Below, in pieces: positions 2,654 to 51,986 of a stretch of 64,000 nt of DNA (its first letter is position 1; each line of letters opens with the position of its first letter). The translations under genes were made by a program, and so were the position numbers. The stretch comes from a virus (taxonomy: Duplodnaviria; Heunggongvirae; Uroviricota; Caudoviricetes), in IMG/VR virus record IMGVR_UViG_2700989044_000001, positions 11,683 to 75,682 of that record; one strand, written 5' to 3'. The notes under the pieces are model-generated. The model was not told where the DNA came from, did no database searches, and saw only the letters and a program-made list of their open reading frames with translations.

Positions 2654-4003
2654 ATGGTTAAGCAATACATTTTATCAATAGATAGTGAAATGAAAGAATA
2701 TTTTGGTGAAAAAATTTCACTCCTTGAAAATCAAATGAAGGATGTTTTCTCTCAAGCAAATCTAGCTATTAATAATTCAAGTTATTTATATTTAATAGAA
2801 AACTTCATAAAAGACATTCTAGATACAAGTATTTCACTAATTGATTATTATGTTGATGGTATTTACAATAGTGGAAAAACAGTCAGTAGGAAAAAATTGA
2901 AATTGCAAAAACAAATCCCAGATGATGGAGAAAGATACGCGTTTACTGATAAAGATAAGTTATTTATTGAAAAATACAAATCAGAAAAATTAGTATCGTT
3001 ACAATTAGAATTACAAAAAGCAATATTTGCATATATCGAAAACAAATTATCTAATGAAATTGATAACAATGATTCAAAAGTTATTGATTTAATTAAAGAA
3101 GACCTAGATAGCTCTTATGAAGAAATTATAGATATTTTAGTTAGAGAAATACTAATGTTATTTAAAAGATCCCAAATAGAAGAGTATAAAAATTTAAATA
3201 TCAAAGAAATATCTATAATCACTGAAGATGAATCACTATGTTGTCCAGTTTGTATAGCTAAGTCTAATAAAATTTTAAAAATAGATGAAGTAATTAACGA
3301 TTTTGGTTTAAAGGATGGTAATCACCATTCATTCTGTAATTATTCGTTAGATCCAATAATTAGTCTTGGTAAAAATGAAGAACTAAATAATGAAGTTAAT
3401 ACAAATATTGATTTTAATATTTTATCTTTATCTTTTAAAAATGTACCAATTGAACTTGAATATAGAATTAATAAGTTAGTAAGTAAATTTAAGATATATG
3501 GTAAGAAGTATTTAAGAGAAATTGAATTTAATTTTGTTAAAAACATCACAGAAGAAAACGATTGGTTTAATTCTGTTAAGTCTCATTATTCAAACTCTGA
3601 AAACAAATCTGCTATTGATAATGTTTTACAGGCTCAGGATGATTTAAAAGATAAAACTATGTCTTTTGATTTTAATGACAAATGTTATATATCTATCAAT
3701 TCGCTCGATTATCAATCTGTAGAAGAAATTATTACTAGAAAACTTATGAATGATTCATTAGTTATTGATAATTGGGTAACTGATAGATATCAAACTAAGA
3801 TAGATAGTAAGTATGTTGGAAATGGTATTGTGATATATCAAGATCCGTTTGTAAATCAACTGGCTCAAGATTCACCTTTTGATTATTTATTAGAATCAAT
3901 TATTGTTTATGTAAATAAACCTAAGCAATTAGAAGTATTAGACAAGGAAATTTTTGATTACATTAAAGAAAAAATCTTCAATGGAATTCAATTTTTTAAG
4001 TAA
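2654..4003 (+). CDS. hypothetical protein (possible head morphogenesis protein, follows portal)
   Basis: ATG at 2654 after GGGGGTGAG RBS (ORF-track start 2627 is an upstream extension); Cys cluster CCPVC; position after portal. Confidence 0.45.
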   Translation: MVKQYILSIDSEMKEYFGEKISLLENQMKDVFSQANLAINNSSYLYLIENFIKDILDTSISLIDYYVDGIYNSGKTVSRKKLKLQKQIPDDGERYAFTDKDKLFIEKYKSEKLVSLQLELQKAIFAYIENKLSNEIDNNDSKVIDLIKEDLDSSYEEIIDILVREILMLFKRSQIEEYKNLNIKEISIITEDESLCCPVCIAKSNKILKIDEVINDFGLKDGNHHSFCNYSLDPIISLGKNEELNNEVNTNIDFNILSLSFKNVPIELEYRINKLVSKFKIYGKKYLREIEFNFVKNITEENDWFNSVKSHYSNSENKSAIDNVLQAQDDLKDKTMSFDFNDKCYISINSLDYQSVEEIITRKLMNDSLVIDNWVTDRYQTKIDSKYVGNGIVIYQDPFVNQLAQDSPFDYLLESIIVYVNKPKQLEVLDKEIFDYIKEKIFNGIQFFK

Positions 4004-11606: not shown

Positions 11607-12455
11607 ATGAGTCAATTATCAAATCAAGAAAAAGAATATTTAATTTCAAAAGCTCTTGAAACTGAAGAAGGCCGTGTAGCATTAGCTCAAGCAATGGCTA
11701 ACCCAATTCGTGTTTCTCTAGACTACCAAGGTGTAGGTCGTAAACTTTTAGTTGTTGACCCACTACCACAAGGCGCATTACCAGTTTACGATAAAGATGT
11801 TGACGCGAAAGCGTTCGTTATCTCTAAACGTGGTCAAGTACCTGATCAAGTTATCGAAGGTGACAGAATTCAAGTTCCAACTTTCGAAATCGTTTCTTAC
11901 CCACAAGTAAGATTCTCACAAGTTAAAGAGCGTCGTTTCAACGTTATTGACCGTGCTCAACAACGTGCTAAAGCTGATATCATGGCTGTTGAAGATGCTG
12001 AAATCTTCTCACTTTTAGAAGGTGCTGCTACAGCAGTTAACGCAGTTACTATCTCTTCTGGTGGTTTACAACGTGCAGCTTTAACTAAAGCTTTCCAAGA
12101 AGTAGAAAAACATGACTTAGTTGTTACTAAAATCGTTATGAACGCTTCTGCTTTCGCTGATATCCGTGCATGGGGACAAAACGAGTTCGACCCTGTAACT
12201 CAACACGAAGTATTACAAACTGGTTTATTCGGACACATCTGGACTGCAGATATCTTAATCTCTAAGAAAGTTCCTCAAAACACAGTTTATGTACTTGCTG
12301 ATCCTGAATTCGTAGGTGTTATGCCTATCCGTCAAGATATTCAAGTAATTCCAGCTGACAAGCCCGAAGAATTACGTCTCGGCTGGGTAATTTACGAAGA
12401 ATTGGGCCTTGCGGTAGTTAACTCTTTAGCAATTGCTAAAATTTCAATCCAATAA
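11607..12455 (+). CDS. major capsid protein (HK97 fold)
   Basis: 282 aa; capsid-like sequence; strong RBS TAGGAGG; high-expression codon bias; strong terminator downstream. Confidence 0.6.
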   Translation: MSQLSNQEKEYLISKALETEEGRVALAQAMANPIRVSLDYQGVGRKLLVVDPLPQGALPVYDKDVDAKAFVISKRGQVPDQVIEGDRIQVPTFEIVSYPQVRFSQVKERRFNVIDRAQQRAKADIMAVEDAEIFSLLEGAATAVNAVTISSGGLQRAALTKAFQEVEKHDLVVTKIVMNASAFADIRAWGQNEFDPVTQHEVLQTGLFGHIWTADILISKKVPQNTVYVLADPEFVGVMPIRQDIQVIPADKPEELRLGWVIYEELGLAVVNSLAIAKISIQ

Positions 12456-33737: not shown

Positions 33738-33998
33738 ATGGAAAAGACATATTTAACAGAAACTGAAACTATGACATTGAAACATCTTTTAGGATTTAAT
33801 AAACAAACTATAAAACGTTTTGAAGATTTAAATTTAGATGATGAAACTAGATCATTTATTGTGTTCGATATGATAGCAAAAGCTCAACAAAAAGAACGAA
33901 ATAAATGGGAAAAAGAAGTAGAAGAATTGAAAAAGAAAAACAATGGGTTTTTTAAAAATTTATTTAAAAAACGTGGTGACAATAATGGAAGAGTTTAA
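33738..33998 (+). CDS. hypothetical protein
   Basis: ORF after GGAGAGGAGAATAG. Confidence 0.4.
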   Translation: MEKTYLTETETMTLKHLLGFNKQTIKRFEDLNLDDETRSFIVFDMIAKAQQKERNKWEKEVEELKKKNNGFFKNLFKKRGDNNGRV

Positions 33999-34605
33999 AT
34001 ATGAAGAGCATGTTGGTTTGGTGATGAAAGGTATTAAAAAGACATTTGGTAGTATTGAAAGTGCTGCTTTTATAGCGAAAGCAAATTCTTATGATTTAGA
34101 AGATTATATTCAAGTAGGTATGATAGGGCTATTTGCAGCAAGAGAGAAATTTGATGAGTCAAAAAATTATAAGTTTTCAACTTTTGCAATGTCATATATT
34201 TGCGGTTATTTATTAAAAGAAATAGAAAGGAATACTTTAGTTAAGTTTCCTAGAAGTATACAAAAAGAAGAGAGAATTGATTTTATGAATTCTATTTTCT
34301 CTGTAAATTCTGAATATGTCAGTTTAGATAAAGATATCAAGGCTATGAGAGATGTTGGAGAATCAGAGTTATTAATAAGACGTACCTCTTTAGAAGAAGA
34401 AGTTTTATCTAACTTAGAATTTGATAGAGCTCTAAATACTCTAAATGAAAAGAATAAACAAGTTGTTTTAATGAAACTAGAAGGTCATAGTAATATAGAA
34501 ATTAGTAAATACACAGGCATTTCTACCAAAATGATAAGTAAAATATTTTGTAACAGTAAAAAGAAAATAGCACAACATTACACTACATTAGGAGAGTTAG
34601 CATGA
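33985..34605 (+). CDS. sigma-70 family RNA polymerase sigma factor
   Basis: Region 2 (IQVGMIGLFAAREKFD...FSTFAMSYICGYL) and region 4 HTH (LEGHSNIEISKYTGISTKMISKI); ATG after GGTGACAAT. Confidence 0.7.
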   Translation: MEEFKYEEHVGLVMKGIKKTFGSIESAAFIAKANSYDLEDYIQVGMIGLFAAREKFDESKNYKFSTFAMSYICGYLLKEIERNTLVKFPRSIQKEERIDFMNSIFSVNSEYVSLDKDIKAMRDVGESELLIRRTSLEEEVLSNLEFDRALNTLNEKNKQVVLMKLEGHSNIEISKYTGISTKMISKIFCNSKKKIAQHYTTLGELA

Positions 34606-42073: not shown

Positions 42074-44135
42074 GATTACAATGAGAGGAGAAGATGGATT
42101 TTTCCAACTTCACAAAGATAAAGAAGCAGTTGAAGCTTTTAGAAAAGAGCTAGAAACTAAAAAAATTAAATTTAAAGATGTAGAAGAAAAAATCAACTAC
42201 ATGATTAATAACGACTACTACTTTAATGTTTTAGAACAATATACTATGGATCAAATCAAAAAGATTTATTCTACATTGTATGCTTATAACTTTAAATTCC
42301 AATCATATATGGCGATTTCAAAGTTTTATAAAGATTATGCTTTAAAAACAAACGATAAAAAATTCTACTTAGAATCTTATGAAGATCGTATTGCTATTGT
42401 TTCTTTATTCTTAGGACAAGGTAATTTCAATAAAGCAAAAAGTTTAGCTGTTTCTATGATTGAACAAAGATACCAACCAGCTACTCCAACTTTCCTAAAT
42501 GCTGGTAGAAGCAGACGCGGAGAAATGGTTTCTTGTTTCTTATTAGAAATGGATGATAGCTTGAATTCAATTGGTTTCAATATCAATACTGCAATGCAAT
42601 TATCTAAAATTGGCGGCGGCGTTGCCTTAAACCTTTCTAAACTTAGAGGAAGAAAAGAGCAAATTAAAGGTATTGATGATGCTGCTTCTGGAGTAGTACC
42701 AGTTATGAAACTTTTAGAAGATAGCTTCTCTTATGCTAATCAGCTTGGCCAAAGAAAAGGCGCTGGAGCTGTTTACTTAAACATCTTCCACTGGGATATT
42801 ATTGAATTCTTAGATACTAAAAAGATCAATGCTGATGAAAAAGCCAGAATTCAATCTTTATCTATTGGATTAATTGCTGAAAAAATCTTCTTCCAATTAG
42901 CAAAAAGAAACGAAGAAATGTATGTTTTTGCTCCTCACTCGGTTTACAGAGCTTATGGTGAACATTTAGATGACATGGATTTAAATGTTATGTATGATAA
43001 GTTAGTTAAAAACCCAGCTGTTAAGAAACGTAAGTTAAATTTAACTGCTCGCGAAATGCTTATTAAAATTGCTATTATTCAATTAGAATCTGGCTACCCT
43101 TATTTTATGTACAAAACTAACGCTAATGATACTCACGCATTAAAAGATATTGGCCAAGTTAAAATGAGTAATCTTTGTACGGAAATCTTCCAATTACAAG
43201 AGACATCTACTATTAATAACTATGGTACTGATGATGAAATCAAGAGAGATATCAACTGTAATTTAGGTTCATTAAATATTGTTAATGTAATGGAATTAAA
43301 AGCAATTAGAGATTCAGTTCATGCTGGTGTCGAAGCATTAACATCAGTTTCTGATATTACTTCAATTGAAAATGCCCCTACAGTTAAGAAAGCTAATGAT
43401 GAACTTCACGCTATTGGTTTGGGTTCTATGAACTTACACGGATGGTTAGCTAAAAATAAAATTAATTACGAATCTCCTGAAGCTCTAGATTTCGTTAGAA
43501 CTTTCTATATGGCAGTAAACTACTATTCTATTGAGAAAAGTATGATGATCGCTAAAGAAACTGGGGTTAAGTTTAAAGACTTTGAAAGATCAGAATATGC
43601 AAAAGGTACTTATTTTGCTAAATATCTTAAAAACGATTACTCTCCTAGAACTGAAAAAATCAAACAAATGTTTGATGGAATTGAAATTCCTTCTCAATCA
43701 GATTGGGAGAATTTAATGTTTGATGTTAAGAAATATGGTTTATACCATGCTTACCGTCTGGCAACAGCACCAACACAAAGTATTTCTTATATTCAAAATG
43801 CAACGCCAAGTGTTATGCCAATTGTAGATCATATTGAAGCTAGAACATATGCTAACTCTACAACATACTATCCAATGCCTTATTTGTCATTAGATACTTT
43901 CTGGTATTATAAATCAGCATATAATACAAATCAATTTAAATTAATTGACATTATTGCTGAAATGCAAGAACATGTAGACCAAGGTATTAGTACAATTTTA
44001 TATGTAAATAGCGATATTACCACTAGCGAATTAGCTAGATATTATATTTATGCAAGTGAAAAAGGATTAAAGAGTCTTTACTACACTAGAACGAATAATT
44101 TAGGTGTTAACGAATGTGAGACTTGTTCAGTTTAA
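42048..44135 (+). CDS. nrdE: ribonucleoside-diphosphate reductase class Ib alpha subunit
   Basis: Colinear with Bacillus NrdE along its length (NNEIT..KDKEAV...PTFLNAGR...NLCTEI...CETCSV); TTG at 42048 after GAGGTGG, overlapping the nrdI end (ORF-track 41991 start rejected); no intron or intein. Confidence 0.85.
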   Translation: MNHIELNNEITMRGEDGFFQLHKDKEAVEAFRKELETKKIKFKDVEEKINYMINNDYYFNVLEQYTMDQIKKIYSTLYAYNFKFQSYMAISKFYKDYALKTNDKKFYLESYEDRIAIVSLFLGQGNFNKAKSLAVSMIEQRYQPATPTFLNAGRSRRGEMVSCFLLEMDDSLNSIGFNINTAMQLSKIGGGVALNLSKLRGRKEQIKGIDDAASGVVPVMKLLEDSFSYANQLGQRKGAGAVYLNIFHWDIIEFLDTKKINADEKARIQSLSIGLIAEKIFFQLAKRNEEMYVFAPHSVYRAYGEHLDDMDLNVMYDKLVKNPAVKKRKLNLTAREMLIKIAIIQLESGYPYFMYKTNANDTHALKDIGQVKMSNLCTEIFQLQETSTINNYGTDDEIKRDINCNLGSLNIVNVMELKAIRDSVHAGVEALTSVSDITSIENAPTVKKANDELHAIGLGSMNLHGWLAKNKINYESPEALDFVRTFYMAVNYYSIEKSMMIAKETGVKFKDFERSEYAKGTYFAKYLKNDYSPRTEKIKQMFDGIEIPSQSDWENLMFDVKKYGLYHAYRLATAPTQSISYIQNATPSVMPIVDHIEARTYANSTTYYPMPYLSLDTFWYYKSAYNTNQFKLIDIIAEMQEHVDQGISTILYVNSDITTSELARYYIYASEKGLKSLYYTRTNNLGVNECETCSV

Positions 44136-44210
44136 TTAGTTTTAAAATATCAGCTTCTATTAATTTAGAAGCTGATATATAAATTTTAAAATATGAGGTG
44201 TATGAATAGA

Positions 44211-45182
44211 ATGGCACGTGGCGTCAATTGGAATAAATTAGAAGATGAATATAGTTTAATGTTCTGGAAGCAAAATATTTCGCAATTCTGGACCGAAGAA
44301 GAAATTGCAATTTCTTCAGATAAAAATACTTGGTTCGATTTAACTAAAGCTGAAAAGAAAGCTTATAAAAATATACTAGGTGGTCTTACTTTACTTGACA
44401 CTAAACAAGGTGGAGAAGGTATGCCGCTTATCTTGCTTCACACTAAGAATCTACAAGCAAAAGCAGTTTTAGCTTTCATGGGGGCAATGGAAGAAATTCA
44501 CGCTAAGAGCTATTCTAGTATCTTTACCACTCTCGTTGCTGAAGATGAAATTGAAGATATTTTTGAATGGGTAGATAAAAATCCACAATTAACTACAAAA
44601 TCAGATTTAATTACTCAAAGATACCATGCTTTGTTTAAACCGCAAGTTACTAATAAAGAACTCTATATGGCGATGGTTGCTTCTGTATTCCTTGAAAGTT
44701 ATCTTTTCTATAGTGGTTTCTTCTATCCATTATACTTAGCTGGCCAAGGGAAAATGACAGCTTCTGGTGAAATTATTAACTTGATTATTCGTGATGAATC
44801 TATCCATGGAGTATTTGTTGGTATGCTTGCACAAGAGGTTTATTCTCAAATGTCAGAGCAAGAACAAAAAGAAGTAGATAAAGAAACTTATGATTTGTTG
44901 ATTGATTTATATGAAAATGAATTGGTTTATACAGAAGAGATTTATTCTGAAATTGGTTTAGTTGATGAAGTTAGGAAATTTGTTCGTTATAATGCCAATA
45001 AAGCTCTTATGAATTTAGCTTTAGAACCCTACTTTGAAGAGGAAGAAATTAACCCAATCGTATTTAATGGTTTGAAAACAAATACTAAAAATCATGATTT
45101 CTTCTCAGTTAAAGGTAATGGGTATATTAAAACTTTAAACATTACGCAATTAAAAGACGAAGATTTCAACTTTAACTTTTAA
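44211..45182 (+). CDS. nrdF: ribonucleoside-diphosphate reductase class Ib beta subunit
   Basis: Matches Bacillus NrdF (VNWNKLEDE...FWTEEEIA...SGEIINLIIRDESIHG...NANKALMNL); ATG 44211 is 9 nt after GAGGTG. Confidence 0.85.
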   Translation: MARGVNWNKLEDEYSLMFWKQNISQFWTEEEIAISSDKNTWFDLTKAEKKAYKNILGGLTLLDTKQGGEGMPLILLHTKNLQAKAVLAFMGAMEEIHAKSYSSIFTTLVAEDEIEDIFEWVDKNPQLTTKSDLITQRYHALFKPQVTNKELYMAMVASVFLESYLFYSGFFYPLYLAGQGKMTASGEIINLIIRDESIHGVFVGMLAQEVYSQMSEQEQKEVDKETYDLLIDLYENELVYTEEIYSEIGLVDEVRKFVRYNANKALMNLALEPYFEEEEINPIVFNGLKTNTKNHDFFSVKGNGYIKTLNITQLKDEDFNFNF

Positions 45183-45186
45183 TCAT

Positions 45187-45226
45187 TAAACCTACTTGGA
45201 CTTTAATTCAAGTAGGTTTAATTTTC
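45187..45226 (+). terminator. rho-independent terminator
   Basis: AAACCTACTTG...CAAGTAGGTTT hairpin followed by T-run. Confidence 0.8.
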
Positions 45227-45345
45227 TTTAATTTTTGTAAATAAAAATATTAATTTTAAATATAATTTTAATGTAATTACTTATTAATTTCTGAGAAAGA
45301 AAATTAACAGTTTATATAAAGGATAAAAAGGAGTTTTTATTTGCA

Positions 45346-45921
45346 ATGAGAAAAAGATGGAATAAAGAAGAAGATAAAGAGTTACTATCATATATTTTAA
45401 AATTCGTAGAAGAAGGAAATTCCTTAAGAGAAGCTGTGAAATTAGCGAGCGAAGAAATTAATAGAACATTTGAATCTTGTTACGCTAGATGGAATAATTT
45501 CCTAAGAATAGAGTATGAAGATCGATTAGAAACAGCAAAGTCATCTGCAAAAGAAAATGGAAATGTCTTTTATGAAAAATGGACTTCAGATGATGATGAA
45601 ATGTTAGCCGATATTATTTTAAATGAAATTAGTAACGGTAGCTCTACTAGAAAGGCGGTCAACGCTTCTGCTAAGAAACTAAATAGATCCTTTACTTCTT
45701 GCTATAATAGATGGCAAACAGTTGTAAGTAAGCGTTTTGAACAAAAATTTGTTTTTAAAGATTGTGAAAATGAAAGTAATAATGACTTAGAAAACTTAAA
45801 AGAAAGATTTTTACTTTTAGAGAATAATTTTCATAATGTTCTAGAACAAAATGAAAAAATTATTGCGCAAAATGAAGAATTATTTAAGATGTTACAAAAA
45901 GAGAAAGGGACTAATAGCTAA
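45346..45921 (+). CDS. RsfA-family (Myb/SANT-like) transcriptional regulator, two repeats
   Basis: RWNKEEDKELL...LREAV...NRTFESCYARWNN and a second WTSDDDEML...NRSFTSCYNRWQT repeat, as in Bacillus prespore regulator RsfA. Confidence 0.6.
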   Translation: MRKRWNKEEDKELLSYILKFVEEGNSLREAVKLASEEINRTFESCYARWNNFLRIEYEDRLETAKSSAKENGNVFYEKWTSDDDEMLADIILNEISNGSSTRKAVNASAKKLNRSFTSCYNRWQTVVSKRFEQKFVFKDCENESNNDLENLKERFLLLENNFHNVLEQNEKIIAQNEELFKMLQKEKGTNS

Positions 45922-45938
45922 TATTAGTCCTTTTTTTA
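45906..45938 (+). terminator. rho-independent terminator overlapping the stop codon
   Basis: GGACTAATA-GC-TAATATTAGTCC followed by T7. Confidence 0.65.
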
Positions 45939-46080
45939 TATAAATTGGTTATTATGTAAAAAATTGACAATAATGTGGATGAGTTTTTTAACTATTTTGT
46001 TAATTTATTATATAATACATGTATACGCAAAGGGGTAAAAACTACGAACGTAGTATAAATTAATGTAGGGGGAGTTTCGT

Positions 46081-46446
46081 TTGTCTAAAAGATGGACAGC
46101 AGAAGAAGATAAATTGTTAGCAGTATTAATGCTAAAATATATACAAGGTGGGGAGAGTGTTAGAAAATCCGCTCTAATTGCTTCAAAAGAAATGAAAAAT
46201 AGAACATATGAAGCATGTTATACAAGATGGACTAAGACTTTAAAAAAGAAAAATGATTCCCCTTTGAAAAAAGAAGATTATGATAAAGCTTTCATAACTT
46301 TAATAATTGATCTTTTTAAAGAAAACCAACTATTGAGTTATAGACTAACTGGGTTAGAAAGAAAATATCAAAAAATAGAGAAAAAAATAGAAATAGAACA
46401 AAAACCAGTTAGAAGAATAGGGTTTCTTATTGAAGAGAATGAATAA
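46081..46446 (+). CDS. RsfA-family (Myb/SANT-like) transcriptional regulator, single repeat
   Basis: RWTAEEDKLL...NRTYEACYTRWTK; TTG start after GGGGGAG. Confidence 0.55.
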   Translation: MSKRWTAEEDKLLAVLMLKYIQGGESVRKSALIASKEMKNRTYEACYTRWTKTLKKKNDSPLKKEDYDKAFITLIIDLFKENQLLSYRLTGLERKYQKIEKKIEIEQKPVRRIGFLIEENE

Positions 46447-46867
46447 TTCTCTTTTCTTTTTGTAGTTCTTTATTAATTTATACTATGTTAAAAAAATGAA
46501 TATTTTGTTAAAACTATGTGACTAAATATATATTATTTATTATCTCAATTTTACAGTTCAAGCTAGAAAATACATCAAAAAAAAGATAGTTGAAAAATAA
46601 AAATAAAAAAATTAAAAATAACTGTTATAAAAAGTGATAGTTATGTATATAATATAATCAAATAAAACAATTGAACGAAAGTTGAGAGGTGAAAGATAAT
46701 GATGAAATGTTCGTGGTTTGAATTTGATACTGATTTTACGGATGTATTTTATTGCGAATATACATTTTATTCATTATACACTTTTTTAGATATACGAAAA
46801 CAACTCCAGAAAAGCAGAGGATGTCTTACATAAACTAGATTTAGTTTAGATATCATAAAAAATGCTC

Positions 46868-46898
46868 GGAGCTGATTCGTATAGAATCAGCTTTTTAT
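46868..46898 (+). terminator. hairpin followed by T-run upstream of the tRNA cluster
   Basis: GAGCTGATTC-GTATA-GAATCAGCT followed by TTTTTA. Confidence 0.45.
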
Positions 46899-46901
46899 TA
46901 T

Positions 46902-46972
46902 GCGTTTATAGCCAAGTGGTAAGGCCTCGGTCTGCAAAACCGATATCGCGAGTTCAAATCTCGCTAAACGCT
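46902..46972 (+). tRNA. tRNA-Cys (GCA)
   Basis: Cloverleaf read by eye; anticodon loop CTGCAAA; T-loop GTTCAAATC; similar to Bacillus tRNA-Cys. Confidence 0.85.
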
Positions 46973-46979
46973 TTATAAT

Positions 46980-47055
46980 GGCTCCGTGGTGTAGCGGTTA
47001 ACACGCCTGCCTGTCACGTAGGAGATCGCCGGTTCGAATCCGGTCGGGGCCGCCA
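46980..47055 (+). tRNA. tRNA-Asp (GTC)
   Basis: Anticodon loop CCTGTCACG, T-loop GGTTCGAATCC, encoded CCA. Confidence 0.85.
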
Positions 47056-47084
47056 TTAAGTATTTAATGGAAAGAGGTGAAAAC

Positions 47085-47396
47085 ATGTCTAAAGCGTCTA
47101 TGATTGCTAAAATGCTACAAGAGGGTAAAACTATCGAACGTTATAAAGAGGCAGGAAATAGTATGTTACCTATTTTAAAGTCGAAACAACCAGTAACTTT
47201 AGAACCAGTTACTATTGATATTGTTTTAAAAGAAAATGATATTGTGTTTTGTAGAGTGAAGGGTAATTACTATACTCATAAAATCACTGGAATAAGAAAC
47301 AATCAATATCAAATTTCAAACAATCGTGGTTTTGTTAATGGTTGGATATCAAGAGATAAAATCTTCGGTAAAGTTACAAAAATTTGGGATAAATAA
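47085..47396 (+). CDS. S24/S26-like peptidase domain protein (LexA/signal-peptidase fold)
   Basis: GNSMLPIL resembles the GDSM/GSMxP catalytic Ser motif; ATG after AGAGGTGAAAAC. Confidence 0.4.
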   Translation: MSKASMIAKMLQEGKTIERYKEAGNSMLPILKSKQPVTLEPVTIDIVLKENDIVFCRVKGNYYTHKITGIRNNQYQISNNRGFVNGWISRDKIFGKVTKIWDK

Positions 47397-47431
47397 CTTA
47401 CAAAAACAGTTTAATAGTGAGGAGAATTATG

Positions 47432-47557
47432 ATGATGCATAAGATTGATTGGTTATCAGTAAAATTATTATGTTTAGGTGGCATAGTTACTATTGCATTA
47501 ACTGAATTAGCTATAATTATAGCTCACACTATTATCTGGAGTGGTATGGATGTATAA
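47432..47557 (+). CDS. small membrane protein (41 aa)
   Basis: Not in ORF track; RBS AGTGAGGAGAATT; single TM helix. Confidence 0.35.
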   Translation: MMHKIDWLSVKLLCLGGIVTIALTELAIIIAHTIIWSGMDV

Positions 47558-47613
47558 TTTAAAGAAGTTCCTTATACATACCGATAGTTTTAAAAAAGGA
47601 ACTTTATAATAAC

Positions 47614-47689
47614 GGAGGAGTAGCTCAGTTGGTAGAGCGGCAGATTGAAGATCTGCGCGTCGGGGGTTCAAGTCCCTTTTCCTCCACCA
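47614..47689 (+). tRNA. tRNA-Phe (GAA)
   Basis: GGAGGAGTAGCTCAGTTGGTAGAGC D-arm; anticodon loop TTGAAGA; CCA encoded. Confidence 0.85.
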
Positions 47690-47694
47690 TATAT

Positions 47695-47779
47695 GGGGAG
47701 ATAGACCGTAAGTGGAAGCGGGCAGGACTGTAAATCCTGTGAGAAATCCTTGGGTGTTCGATTCGCCCTCTCCCCACCA
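47695..47779 (+). tRNA. tRNA-Tyr (GTA)
   Basis: Anticodon loop ACTGTAAAT, long variable arm, CCA encoded, 85 nt. Confidence 0.8.
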
Positions 47780-47792
47780 TTTTATTAATTAT

Positions 47793-47868
47793 GGCGCGTT
47801 AGCCAAGTGGTAAGGCATCCGGCTTTCTACCGGAGATTACACGAGTTCGAACCTCGTACGCGCTACCA
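47793..47868 (+). tRNA. tRNA-Glu (TTC) (anticodon assignment tentative)
   Basis: Bacillus tRNA-Glu-like architecture; anticodon loop CTTTCTA gives TTC but carries an unusual pyrimidine at position 37. Confidence 0.55.
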
Positions 47869-47873
47869 TTTTT

Positions 47874-47948
47874 GCCGGTTTAGCTCAGCGGTAGAGCGCT
47901 CCCCTTGTAAGGGAGATGTCGTGGGTTCAAATCCTATAACCGGCTCCA
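47874..47948 (+). tRNA. tRNA-Thr (TGT)
   Basis: GCCGGTTTAGCTCAGCGGTAGAGC; anticodon loop CTTGTAA. Confidence 0.85.
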
Positions 47949-47972
47949 TGTTATTTTAAAGGAGGAATTCGC

Positions 47973-48176
47973 ATGATATCTAAGCTTATCAATTTGTTTT
48001 CTAGAAAGAAAACTCCCGCTGAATTAGTCCGATTAAGAAAAGTAAGCAATTTAGAATCGCAAGGTGATATGATGTCAGGAGTTATTAGACAATACCAACA
48101 AATGAATAATAAACAAATGGCTAATCAGATTTTAAAAGAATCTATTGAACCATTAAAGAAAGCTAAATTTAAATAA
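47973..48176 (+). CDS. hypothetical protein
   Basis: ORF after AAAGGAGGAATTCGC. Confidence 0.45.
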   Translation: MISKLINLFSRKKTPAELVRLRKVSNLESQGDMMSGVIRQYQQMNNKQMANQILKESIEPLKKAKFK

Positions 48177-48919: not shown

Positions 48920-48997
48920 AGGGGATTAAAGATAATTGGATAATCGTCTGGCCTCCAAAGCCATGATACGCGGGTTCGATTCCTGCATCCCCTGCCA
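48920..48997 (+). tRNA. tRNA-Trp (CCA) candidate with atypical D-arm
   Basis: Acceptor AGGGGAT/ATCCCCT, anticodon loop CTCCAAA identical to Bacillus tRNA-Trp, T-loop GGTTCGATTCC; no clean D-stem pairing found. Confidence 0.5.
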
Positions 48998-50202: not shown

Positions 50203-50487
50203 ATGATGGAAAAGAAGCCAAAGAAGCCAAAGTATAAAATGCTAAAAGATTTTAGATTAAAGCTTTTGTTATTTGAAAGCTTAGAAGACAAGCGCATAAA
50301 CTCAATATCAAATATAGATATTTACTATACAAAAGTTAAATCCGGTAAGTTTTTATTTCCATGTAAGAAGAAAATATTAGTTAGACTTACTGTCGAAGAA
50401 GAATTATTTGTTTTAGAATGTATGACAAAAAATTTGGATTTACAAAAACTAACTATGGGATACGAATATGAAATAGAATATAAATGA
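50203..50487 (+). CDS. tandem paralog 1 (EYEIEYK family)
   Basis: Shares the VKSGK...ECMTKNLDLQKL...EYEIEYK core. Confidence 0.5.
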   Translation: MMEKKPKKPKYKMLKDFRLKLLLFESLEDKRINSISNIDIYYTKVKSGKFLFPCKKKILVRLTVEEELFVLECMTKNLDLQKLTMGYEYEIEYK

Positions 50488-50496
50488 GGTTAAATT

Positions 50497-50775
50497 ATGG
50501 TAAATAGGGGTGCGTACGAAAAACTAGCTGATGTACAAATAAAAGGCGGCATCATTAAAGATCTTGTAAAACAAGATATAGAGTCAATATCAGATATAGA
50601 GATTTATCATAAGAAAGTTAAAACTGGTAAACGCTATTTCTCTCGTAAAAAAGACGTAAGAGTTATTAAATTTATTATACGTAGTGAAGAGTTATTTGTT
50701 ATTGAATGTATGACTAAGAACTTAGATTTACAAGAATTAGCAGGCGGAAATGAGTATGAAATAGAATATAAGTGA
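50497..50775 (+). CDS. tandem paralog 2
   Basis: ...VKTGK...ECMTKNLDLQELAGGNEYEIEYK. Confidence 0.5.
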   Translation: MVNRGAYEKLADVQIKGGIIKDLVKQDIESISDIEIYHKKVKTGKRYFSRKKDVRVIKFIIRSEELFVIECMTKNLDLQELAGGNEYEIEYK

Positions 50776-50784
50776 GGGGAAATA

Positions 50785-51069
50785 ATGTCTCAAAGTACAA
50801 CATTCGATGTATTGCATAACGCAGCGATTGAAGCCTTTATTAAAAAGAAAGTTGAAGAAAGAGATTTAAAATCTATATTAGAAGTGGAAGTTCGTTTTAA
50901 ATCAGTTAAAACTGGTAAAAAAGTTTTCTTTTTCTTTTCAAAAAAGAAACAAATAGGTATTGTGAGATTTAAGGTTAATGAAGAGTTGTCTATTATAGAA
51001 CACATGACAAAAGGATTAGATTTTAAAGAATTAGCGGGTAAAAGAGAATATGAAATAATATACGTTTAA
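50785..51069 (+). CDS. tandem paralog 3
   Basis: ...VKTGKK...FKVNEELSIIEHMTKGLDFKELAGKREYEIIYV. Confidence 0.5.
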   Translation: MSQSTTFDVLHNAAIEAFIKKKVEERDLKSILEVEVRFKSVKTGKKVFFFFSKKKQIGIVRFKVNEELSIIEHMTKGLDFKELAGKREYEIIYV

Positions 51070-51093
51070 GAAACAAGCGAGAGGAGAAGAACT

Positions 51094-51393
51094 ATGACTA
51101 AAGGCGAAATGTCTAATAGAGATAAAGTTACTATTTTAAGAAATGCAGCTATTAAATCTTCCGTTAGAAAAAATATTGAACAAAGAGATTTAGAATCCAT
51201 ATTGGAAGTAGAAGTTTGTTTCCAAATAGTTAAAACTGGTGAATACGTTTCACTAGTTGAAAATAGAGATGAAGCAGTAACTATTGTGAGATTTAAAGTC
51301 GATGAAGAATTATCTCTCATAGAGCATATGATAAAGGGATTAGACTTTAAAGAATTAGCGGGTAAAAGAGAATATGAAATAATATATGTTTAA
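51094..51393 (+). CDS. tandem paralog 4
   Basis: ...VKTGE...FKVDEELSLIEHMIKGLDFKELAGKREYEIIYV; 3' ~75 nt about 90% identical to paralog 3. Confidence 0.5.
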   Translation: MTKGEMSNRDKVTILRNAAIKSSVRKNIEQRDLESILEVEVCFQIVKTGEYVSLVENRDEAVTIVRFKVDEELSLIEHMIKGLDFKELAGKREYEIIYV

Positions 51394-51403
51394 GGAGCTT
51401 TTT

Positions 51404-51685
51404 ATGTCTGATAAAAATGATTTCCATAGATTATTTAACAGTTTAGATATACAAAGAATTATGGATACAATTTCAGAGAAAAAATTCAAATCAATATTAG
51501 AAGTAGATATTAATTACAAGAAAATCCCAACGGGTAAAAAATTTCTTTTTTTCCAACGTAAAGAGATGATTTTTATTTTCAAATTTAAAGTTAATGAAGA
51601 GCTTTCAATTATTGAGCATATGACAAAAGGCTTGAATTTCCAAGAATTAACAAAAGGTTGTAAGTATGAAATAGAATATGTATGA
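51404..51685 (+). CDS. tandem paralog 5
   Basis: ...IPTGKK...FKVNEELSIIEHMTKGLNFQELTKGCKYEIEYV; ATG after AAGGAG. Confidence 0.5.
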   Translation: MSDKNDFHRLFNSLDIQRIMDTISEKKFKSILEVDINYKKIPTGKKFLFFQRKEMIFIFKFKVNEELSIIEHMTKGLNFQELTKGCKYEIEYV

Positions 51686-51986
51686 GGTGTTTAAATTGCC
51701 TAACGATAAAGAGATAGATGAATTCTATTTTAGTGCTATTCATTTTTTGATGGAACATTCAGTTAGAGAAGGTCCATTTAAAAGTATTGAAAAGGTAGAA
51801 GTAATAAGTAAAGAATTTAAATATACAAGGTTTTGTTTCACTCTCAAGAAATCTGTAACAGTTGTTAAGTTTGTTGTAAATGAAAGTATACTTGTTGCTG
51901 AAACTTTAATGAATAATTTAAATATTGAGAATTTCTTGAATTCTATATGTGGAAAGGAATACAAATGGGAAATTGAGTATATTTAA
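51678..51986 (+). CDS. tandem paralog 6 (divergent)
   Basis: Divergent but ends KFVVNES...GKEYKWEIEYI. Confidence 0.45.
   Translation: MYEVFKLPNDKEIDEFYFSAIHFLMEHSVREGPFKSIEKVEVISKEFKYTRFCFTLKKSVTVVKFVVNESILVAETLMNNLNIENFLNSICGKEYKWEIEYI

Follow-up and report, generated by a model that had tools for sequence, protein, structure and literature searches.

The virus record IMGVR_UViG_2700989044_000001 of IMG/VR (Duplodnaviria; Heunggongvirae; Uroviricota; Caudoviricetes) was analyzed over a window of 64,000 nucleotides, corresponding to record positions 11,683 to 75,682 (window coordinate = record coordinate - 11,682), and window positions 44000-48000 are 100% identical to Bacillus phage G (JN638751.1 / NC_023719.1, 497,513 bp). 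The subject of this study is a pair of neighboring genes within that region, gp84 and gp85 in the phage G numbering, which follow the ribonucleotide reductase genes nrdI-nrdE-nrdF, precede a cluster of transfer RNA (tRNA) genes and lie together with both on the plus strand. A preliminary description, made from the letters of the stretch, had placed two open reading frames (ORFs) here, credited the first with two and the second with one Myb/SANT repeat of the kind found in RsfA, a forespore transcription regulator of Bacillus, and proposed that the phage carries sporulation-regulator mimics. The ORF list returns both frames at exactly the positions claimed and on the plus strand, and the repeat count is borne out by the profile stretches and by a hidden Markov model (HMM) of the repeat. 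The proposal of mimicry fares less well, in that the likeness to RsfA is confined to the DNA-binding domain.

The Myb signature itself is real and does not reflect chance. The regular expression W-x2-[ED][ED]D-x1-2-L ... NR[TS]-x3-C-x2-RW finds three matches in the six-frame translation of the window, all of which fall in gp84 and gp85, compared with 0 in 100 shuffles. The form in which the signature had first been given (W-x2-EED-x-L ... NRT-x3-C-x2-RW) holds overall, with repeat 1 of gp84 reading W-x2-EED-x2-L and repeat 2 carrying DDD and NRS in place of EED and NRT. Profile searches, which the preliminary description had put forward as a check, match both proteins to Myb_DNA-bind_6 and to the RsfA family: Pfam PF13921 (Myb_DNA-bind_6; gathering threshold 22.9 bits) is passed by gp84 at 32.9 bits and by gp85 at 27.4 bits, and NCBIfam TIGR02894 (RsfA family) matches gp84 in two stretches (E 3.7e-21) and gp85 in one (E 7.6e-7). 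A second Pfam model, PF00249 (threshold 24.4 bits), is reached marginally by gp84 (24.8 bits) and lies above the score of gp85 (21.2 bits). The best match among the PHROG families is PHROG 16084, a transcriptional regulator (gp84 E 3.1e-13, gp85 E 2.6e-6), for which the alignment of either protein is confined to the N-terminal ~70 of 206 profile positions.

An AlphaFold2 model of gp84 built on four orthologs (predicted local distance difference test score, pLDDT, 82) contains two three-helix modules, with helices at residues 7-22, 27-37 and 42-70 and at residues 81-96, 101-111 and 116-137, followed by one 45-residue helix (residues 145-189) with pLDDT up to 94. In its best heptad register, this C-terminal helix carries L/I/V/M/F at 75% of the a/d positions against a background of 36%. 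The C-terminus of gp85 has a periodicity like that of gp84 (67% hydrophobic heptad a/d positions), and a single-sequence AlphaFold2 model of gp85, which is of low confidence (pLDDT 54), has the same helix pattern. As modeled, the repeats of both proteins are three-helix bundles in which helix 3 would be the recognition helix, and the heptad periodicity suggests that gp84 and gp85 dimerize through their C-terminal zippers.

A Foldseek search of the whole gp84 model against the PDB gave no significant match, because the model consists of three loosely connected helical modules. Sequence matches in the PDB are limited to c-Myb repeats at a weak E of 0.016, with gp84 and gp85 aligned to c-Myb R1/R2, and the RsfA-like family itself has no solved structure. 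Repeats R1-R3 of c-Myb resemble gp84 in their tandem three-helix arrangement, their conserved tryptophans and the cysteine in helix 3; however, this sequence match is marginal and the repeats of gp84 are spaced 74 residues apart, compared with ~52 in c-Myb. Plant MYB-coiled-coil PHR factors, which appear among the weak fold hits, combine Myb and coiled-coil regions in a layout like that of gp84 and gp85. With eukaryotic Myb proteins in general, the two phage proteins have the fold in common and no further evolutionary or functional link.

The closest characterized proteins for comparison are RsfA, which regulates sigma-F-controlled genes, and GerR (YlbO), a repressor that is 52% similar to RsfA and switches off genes turned on by sigma-E; the family models for both are NCBIfam TIGR02894, NF010535 and NF010534. 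The tested bona fide members of the RsfA family score 134-212 bits on TIGR02894, whose curated cutoff of 126.45 bits is missed by gp84 (76.0 bits) and by gp85 (29.4 bits), and the phage proteins match positions 6-73 of this model, which make up its N-terminal Myb-like region. Scores on the GerR/YlbO equivalog models NF010535 and NF010534 (cutoffs 257 and 345 bits, respectively) are far below threshold for both gp84 (52.1 and 63.0 bits) and gp85 (22.4 and 21.1 bits), the first ~60 profile positions alone being matched. With hhalign, the gp84 family aligns to canonical RsfA over 60 columns at 33% identity (probability 97.9%, E 3.7e-13) and the gp85 family over 49 columns at 33% identity (probability 95%), and neither hmmscan nor hhalign finds a counterpart in gp84 or gp85 to the C-terminal block of RsfA (EDY..L..IM.RAR...F.MD.NGNLE). 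The recognition helix differs as well, reading FESCYARWN, FTSCYNRWQ and YEACYTRWT in the repeats of gp84 and gp85 compared with AACGFRWN in canonical RsfA. In the c-Myb-DNA structure, the base-contacting residues correspond (by alignment to c-Myb R2) to the variable positions beside the cysteine of the recognition helix and, because it is these positions that vary, gp84 and gp85 likely differ from RsfA in DNA specificity.

What gp84 and gp85 share with RsfA and GerR is an N-terminal Myb three-helix domain with the pattern W-x2-(E/D)D ... NR(T/S)-x3-C-x2-RW, a helical, coiled-coil-like C-terminal half, a small size (120-260 aa) and a presumed action as modulators of sigma-factor-dependent transcription. 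What sets them apart is that they are phage-encoded, that the Myb domain alone aligns and that gp84 has two repeats before its zipper where RsfA and GerR have one; TATAAT -10 hexamers stand upstream of both phage genes (joined by TTAACT at -35 for gp85). By contrast with gp84, gp85, with a single N-terminal repeat and a coiled-coil-like region, is laid out as RsfA is. By the curated criteria both proteins lie outside the RsfA family, and their sequences place them among the diverged members of an RsfA-like Myb superfamily, neither orthologous to host RsfA or GerR nor closely copied from them. The earlier claim of phage-carried RsfA mimics stands for the presence of RsfA-like Myb repeats on a phage; its functional part, a steering of host sporulation, is weakened by the restriction of the likeness to the DNA-binding domain, the missing C-terminal block, the sub-cutoff scores, the different recognition helix and the set of seven paralogs to which the two genes belong.

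Although tblastn finds no copy of the Myb domain in the window besides those in gp84 and gp85, the repeat HMM detects seven proteins with a total of 11 repeats in the phage G genome (gp84, gp85, gp285, gp321, gp379, gp524 and gp631). Identity among these repeats ranges from 13% to 46%, and the closest pair (46%) comprises gp85 and repeat 1 of gp84, which are also similar in their DNA (82% over 38 nt, 70% over 61 nt). Because this pair is the closest and its relationship is detectable in DNA, the comparison indicates that gp84 and gp85 arose by an old tandem duplication. The paralogs all carry the same RsfA-like Myb repeat, which is also found in tandem in gp379, gp524 and metagenomic relatives; gp84 and gp85 differ from the rest as the sole adjacent pair, conserved beside the nrd genes. 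Among the seven, gp631 aligns with positions 2-151 of the 161 in TIGR02894, and the GerR model is covered by gp321 from end to end. Judged by these alignments, the RsfA/GerR look-alikes of phage G are gp631 and gp321, not gp84 and gp85.

Orthologs of gp84 (71%, 62% and 50% identity) occur in metagenome assemblies only, and those of gp85 (40-57% identity) occur in uncultured G-like phage contigs; the gp85 homolog in the related phage contig L002 is 40% identical and has the same N-terminus. The order nrdI-nrdE-nrdF, gp84, gp85 is kept in two of the ortholog contigs and, where the contigs are long enough, both genes retain a terminator hairpin and a promoter region apiece. In G-like phages the pair thus forms a conserved module whose two genes appear to be transcribed separately. 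Word-indexed homolog searches returned three relatives of gp84 and none of gp85, and an exhaustive HMMER search was needed to sample the family at depth: a gp84 profile run against 1.84 billion representative proteins gave 537 matches at E <= 1e-3, the bulk of them 150-230 aa long with one N-terminal repeat; those of this bulk that were scored on TIGR02894 proved to be bona fide RsfA family members. The nearest non-orthologous relatives of gp84 have 2-7 repeats each, and several lie on phage contigs, including that of a G-like phage. Indeed, the best non-orthologous match is a 385-aa, six-repeat protein (L016 6055-7212; Logan SRR21729616) on a contig syntenic with phage G gp304-gp321, which shows that the repeat number and gene position of the family vary among G-like phages. 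A further non-orthologous match is encoded on a contig that also carries a capsid gene, and a two-repeat relative of 185 aa is encoded on the chromosome of Paenalkalicoccus suaedae. A scan of the gp84 alignment against viral contigs found nothing, and the same scan against genome contigs found one weak locus.

The signals that surround the two genes are collected in table 1. The terminator after nrdF isolates gp84 from the upstream nrdI-nrdE-nrdF unit, and the 27-nt block that follows it is nearly invariant across three G-like phages whose flanking sequences have diverged; the window holds a single copy, and the 497.5-kb genome essentially no other. This block contains no consensus -35 element and is, from its conservation and its -10 hexamer, likely the core promoter of gp84 and possibly also its operator. 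For gp85, the promoter hexamers and their spacing recur upstream of the homolog in L002. The preliminary description had each gene followed by a terminator and an AT-rich, promoter-like region. The terminator after gp84 is a strong hairpin, equaled in folding energy by 0 of 200 shuffles, and the one after gp85 is weak in phage G, with the equivalent hairpins of L002 being significant (z -4.3 and -4.9). The AT-richness is likewise confirmed, with intergenic guanine-cytosine (GC) content of 17-25% against 29.8% for the window; a generic promoter scan, on the other hand, yielded 16 sites compared with 13 +/- 3.7 in shuffles and hence no enrichment. gp84 and gp85 have promoter and terminator modules of their own and would each be transcribed separately.

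Table 1. Features of the gp84-gp85 locus in window coordinates (CDS, coding sequence; RBS, ribosome-binding site; aa, amino acids).
Feature	Position	Strand	Basis and details
Intrinsic terminator after nrdF (gp83)	45185..45222	+	Terminator scan; -18.9 kcal/mol, z -7.6
Conserved non-coding block AATAAAAAnAnTAATTnTnAATATAAT upstream of gp84	45240..45266	+	Ends in TATAAT -10 hexamer (45261-45266)
gp84 CDS	45346..45921	+	ATG start, 191 aa; RBS AAGGAG at 45328-45333; ORF list; identical to phage G gp84
gp84 Myb repeat 1 (aa 1-62)	45346..45531	+	Repeat HMM, alignment; Pfam/NCBIfam stretch 4-71; pLDDT 79-94
gp84 Myb repeat 2 (aa 75-136)	45568..45753	+	Best aligner with canonical RsfA; YlbO/GerR models match residues 77-133
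gp84 C-terminal amphipathic helix (aa 146-187), leucine-zipper-like	45781..45906	+	AlphaFold2, heptad pattern
Intrinsic terminator after gp84	45901..45943	+	Hairpin then U7; -18.3 kcal/mol, z -7.4
Candidate gp85 promoter TTAACT-17-TATAAT	45988..46016	+	Best sigma-70-type match in region, 10/12
gp85 CDS	46081..46446	+	TTG start, 121 aa; RBS GGGGGAG at 46068-46074; ORF list; Pfam and NCBIfam matches
gp85 Myb repeat (aa 1-58) and helical zipper-like C-terminus (aa 66-106)	within 46081..46446	+	
Weak terminator-like hairpin and U-rich tail after gp85	46432..46461	+	-9.0 kcal/mol, z -1.0

Several further features were observed in the non-coding sequence around gp85. The 252-bp gap that follows the gene (46447-46698) has a GC content of 17.9% and no ORF. 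Within it, the promoter region of gp85 recurs in degenerate form (46457-46486 vs 45984-46013, 73% identity), and a promoter-like block stands upstream of gp86 (~46620-46660, TGTTATAAAAA...TATATAATATAATCAAA), with a conserved counterpart in L002 (~3780-3820). An 18-nt inverted repeat, AAC(G/A)TAGTATAAATTAAT, flanks gp85 at 46047-46064 and 46472-46489 (17 of 18 positions match) and has no other copy with <=1 mismatch in the 497.5-kb genome; because it is not conserved in L002, this repeat may be due to chance.

Both the observation of RsfA-like proteins at this locus and the sporulation hypothesis are already known (RefSeq; PMC7824862; PMC12484599). RefSeq annotates gp84, gp85 and gp631 as "RsfA family transcription factor" and gp321 as "putative YlbO-like spore coat regulator"; an expansion in phage G of Myb-type helix-turn-helix (HTH) factors related to firmicute RsfA-like factors has been described (Iyer et al. 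2021, PMC7824862); and a multi-omics paper from 2025 lists gp84 and gp85 by name among prespore regulators of the RsfA-like kind and suggests that stationary phase or sporulation is repressed by them, reports peptides of both from its particle proteomics by liquid chromatography-tandem mass spectrometry (LC-MS/MS) and speculates that virion-borne prespore regulators take effect as infection begins (PMC12484599). What the present analysis adds is that the likeness to RsfA is confined to the DNA-binding domain, that gp631 and gp321 are better candidate mimics and that gp84 and gp85 form a conserved, probably separately transcribed pair.

A query with canonical RsfA places RsfA-like domains in 19 of 50,697 phage records (phage G, Basilisk-like phages, the Slashvirus Stills and "Microcystis phage MaeS"), whereas tblastn searches of cultured phages with gp84 and gp631 find phage G only and miss the Basilisk-like and Slashvirus genes. 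Basilisk, Stills and MaeS have in common a conserved module of a sigma-factor-like gene, a nucleoside triphosphate (NTP) pyrophosphohydrolase and an RsfA-like regulator, the last of which scores under the family cutoffs in all three. Because this module is shared among Basilisk-like phages, Slashvirus and MaeS, we consider RsfA-like regulators to be tied to phage sigma factors. Basilisk gp22, earlier described as an RsfA-domain regulator, and Stills gp26 (both under PHROG 16084) are, like gp84 and gp85, phage Myb and coiled-coil proteins with sub-cutoff scores (~190-220 aa), and the Basilisk-like and Slashvirus genes resemble gp84 and gp85 in location too, having tRNA genes nearby and lying in a part of the genome given to early functions or nucleotide metabolism. 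They differ in having a single repeat and a fixed sigma module, whereas gp84 and gp85 follow ribonucleotide reductase genes. Phage G itself has three sigma-like genes (gp69, gp3 and gp300), of which gp69 (window 33985-34605, 11 kb upstream of gp84) encodes a sigma factor with a SigB/SigF/SigG-like region 2 (TIGR02980, 63 bits, below cutoff). MaeS (L020, MT362618.1) was considered as a case of an RsfA-like gene outside the phages of spore formers and was rejected, as it shares ~66% DNA identity with Slashvirus phages of Bacillus megaterium; its cyanobacterial host label looks doubtful from sequence.

We hypothesize that gp84 and gp85, each expressed from a promoter of its own, are dimeric, sequence-specific factors that adjust the transcription of phage genes, a reading towards which we lean with some reservation. 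Under this hypothesis, the C-terminal zippers would pair to give a gp84 dimer with four DNA-reading heads and a gp85 dimer with two; these would bind specific sites, mainly on phage DNA, and once bound would tune transcription by host RNA polymerase or by polymerase carrying a phage sigma factor as part of the temporal program of a 0.5-Mb phage, in parallel with the way in which GerR switches off genes activated by a sporulation sigma factor and RsfA regulates sigma-F-controlled genes. We infer sequence-specific binding, and phage rather than host targets, because RsfA-like regulators are tied to sigma genes in other phages, because the family has diversified widely within G-like phages (in agreement with Iyer et al. 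2021) and because divergence separates this pair from proteins of the host type. Several observations weigh against this hypothesis: the model of gp85 is of low confidence and dimerization is deduced from sequence periodicity; neither gene is adjacent to a sigma gene in phage G, the nearest being 11 kb away; a search for a recurrent DNA target motif in phage G found none, the upstream blocks being unique in the genome; and the hosts of those phages in culture that carry an RsfA-like gene all seem to be endospore formers of the Bacillus type, which would be in keeping with a link to sporulation. Literature searches for experimental data on the phage G expression program found none.

The preliminary description, and the 2025 study in its proposal for gp84 and gp85 (PMC12484599), look instead to the sporulation of the host. 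On this reading the two proteins would bind the promoters controlled by RsfA (forespore, sigma-F) or GerR (mother cell, sigma-E) and would block or redirect sporulation to the benefit of lysis or of spore entrapment. The homology of the DNA-binding domain to that of RsfA and GerR is consistent with such a role, as are the confinement of cultured-phage RsfA-like genes to the phages of Bacillus-type spore formers and the other sporulation-related genes of phage G, which encode small acid-soluble spore protein (SASP)-like, YtxC-like and spore protease proteins as well as sigma factors with SigF/G-like regions. There is also a precedent in the phage-encoded sporulation-type sigma factors (SP10 g120, Goe3 g157, Eldridge g168 and g169), which lower spore yield experimentally (PMC9429907); these are, like gp84 and gp85, phage copies of host developmental regulators, but they belong to another protein class and are experimentally supported, whereas for gp84 and gp85 such a role is a proposal. 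However, identity to canonical RsfA is ~33% and limited to the Myb domain, the C-terminal block of the family is missing, the RsfA, GerR and YlbO cutoffs lie far above the observed scores, the departure of the recognition helix from AACGFRWN makes an identical DNA specificity unlikely, a two-repeat gp84 does not fit the RsfA/GerR architecture, and gp631 and gp321 are much better candidate mimics. Moreover, neither host regulator would be a strong lever on the sporulation decision: gerR null mutants still make heat-resistant spores and have only a germination defect, and RsfA is a fine-tuner of the sigma-F regulon in B. subtilis. Nothing in the sequence gives specific support to such a hijack by gp84 and gp85, and we regard it as unlikely. 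A variant, in which the proteins, diverged as they are, still bind the promoters of host sporulation genes, or use their zippers to titrate RsfA/GerR partners, and so shift the outcome between spore and lysis, we regard as improbable. In a related reading, G-like phages may have co-opted a whole sporulation-style circuit, comprising a sigma factor and RsfA-like repressors, to time their own development.

Two other roles compete with the regulation of phage genes and draw on different evidence. Detection of both proteins in particle proteomics (PMC12484599) and the basic character of gp85 (predicted isoelectric point, pI, 9.5) would suit proteins that are packaged with the genome, or that cover phage DNA in a largely sequence-independent way, and are active at injection or in DNA organization; yet gp84 is acidic overall (pI 5.4), and a zipper joined to Myb repeats whose recognition helix is conserved is the usual build of a sequence-specific factor. 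Of the enzymes of nucleic-acid metabolism, DNA polymerases among them, 55% also turned up in the same proteomics, and because these were detected alike, we read the peptides of gp84 and gp85 as a sign of expression or carry-over rather than of packaging, and do not accept virion packaging as shown. We give this role little credence. A DNA-recognition subunit for another process, such as a small terminase subunit (TerS) or a replication-origin binder, would likewise combine an HTH with coiled-coil oligomerization; TerS was not found in phage G by the 2025 study, and gp84 has a weak match to phrog_1482 (E 0.014). That match amounts to 16 bits with no stretch over threshold, compared with E 3.1e-13 for the transcriptional regulator phrog_16084, and the large terminase gene gp1 lies 57 kb away, with gp84 and gp85 placed among nucleotide-metabolism and tRNA genes. 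We dismiss the identification of gp84 as a small terminase subunit, the phrog_1482 match not being significant, and find a role of this general kind very hard to credit.

Other features of the window are recorded here for completeness. Six consecutive genes, gp102-gp107 (window 50206-51986; 92-99 aa), are tandem paralogs that are 26-62% identical and share a C-terminal motif like EELxxIEHMTKGLDFxELAGxxEYEIxY, with no significant Pfam match. An eighth tRNA at 48921-48994 is found by Rfam (37 bits) and missed by ARAGORN; RefSeq lists it as 'tRNA-Trp (tgg)', and the anticodon is inconsistent with Trp. The gene gp89 (window 47067-47396; 103 aa) is annotated as 'repressor protein'; a Pfam search at E <= 0.01 returns nothing for its product, in which an HTH is not evident, and its GNSMLP motif is reminiscent of S24 peptidase/LexA-type catalytic domains.

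Should gp84 and gp85 act on host sporulation, the anti-dormancy toolkit of phages would be widened from sigma factors to accessory developmental factors, with a bearing on the persistence of phages in spores; binding of host promoters or titration of RsfA/GerR partners would make this the first phage to steer sporulation with a developmental transcription factor other than a sigma factor. If, as we favor, the two proteins serve to time phage genes, they would provide a handle on how gene expression is organized in a 0.5-Mb phage.

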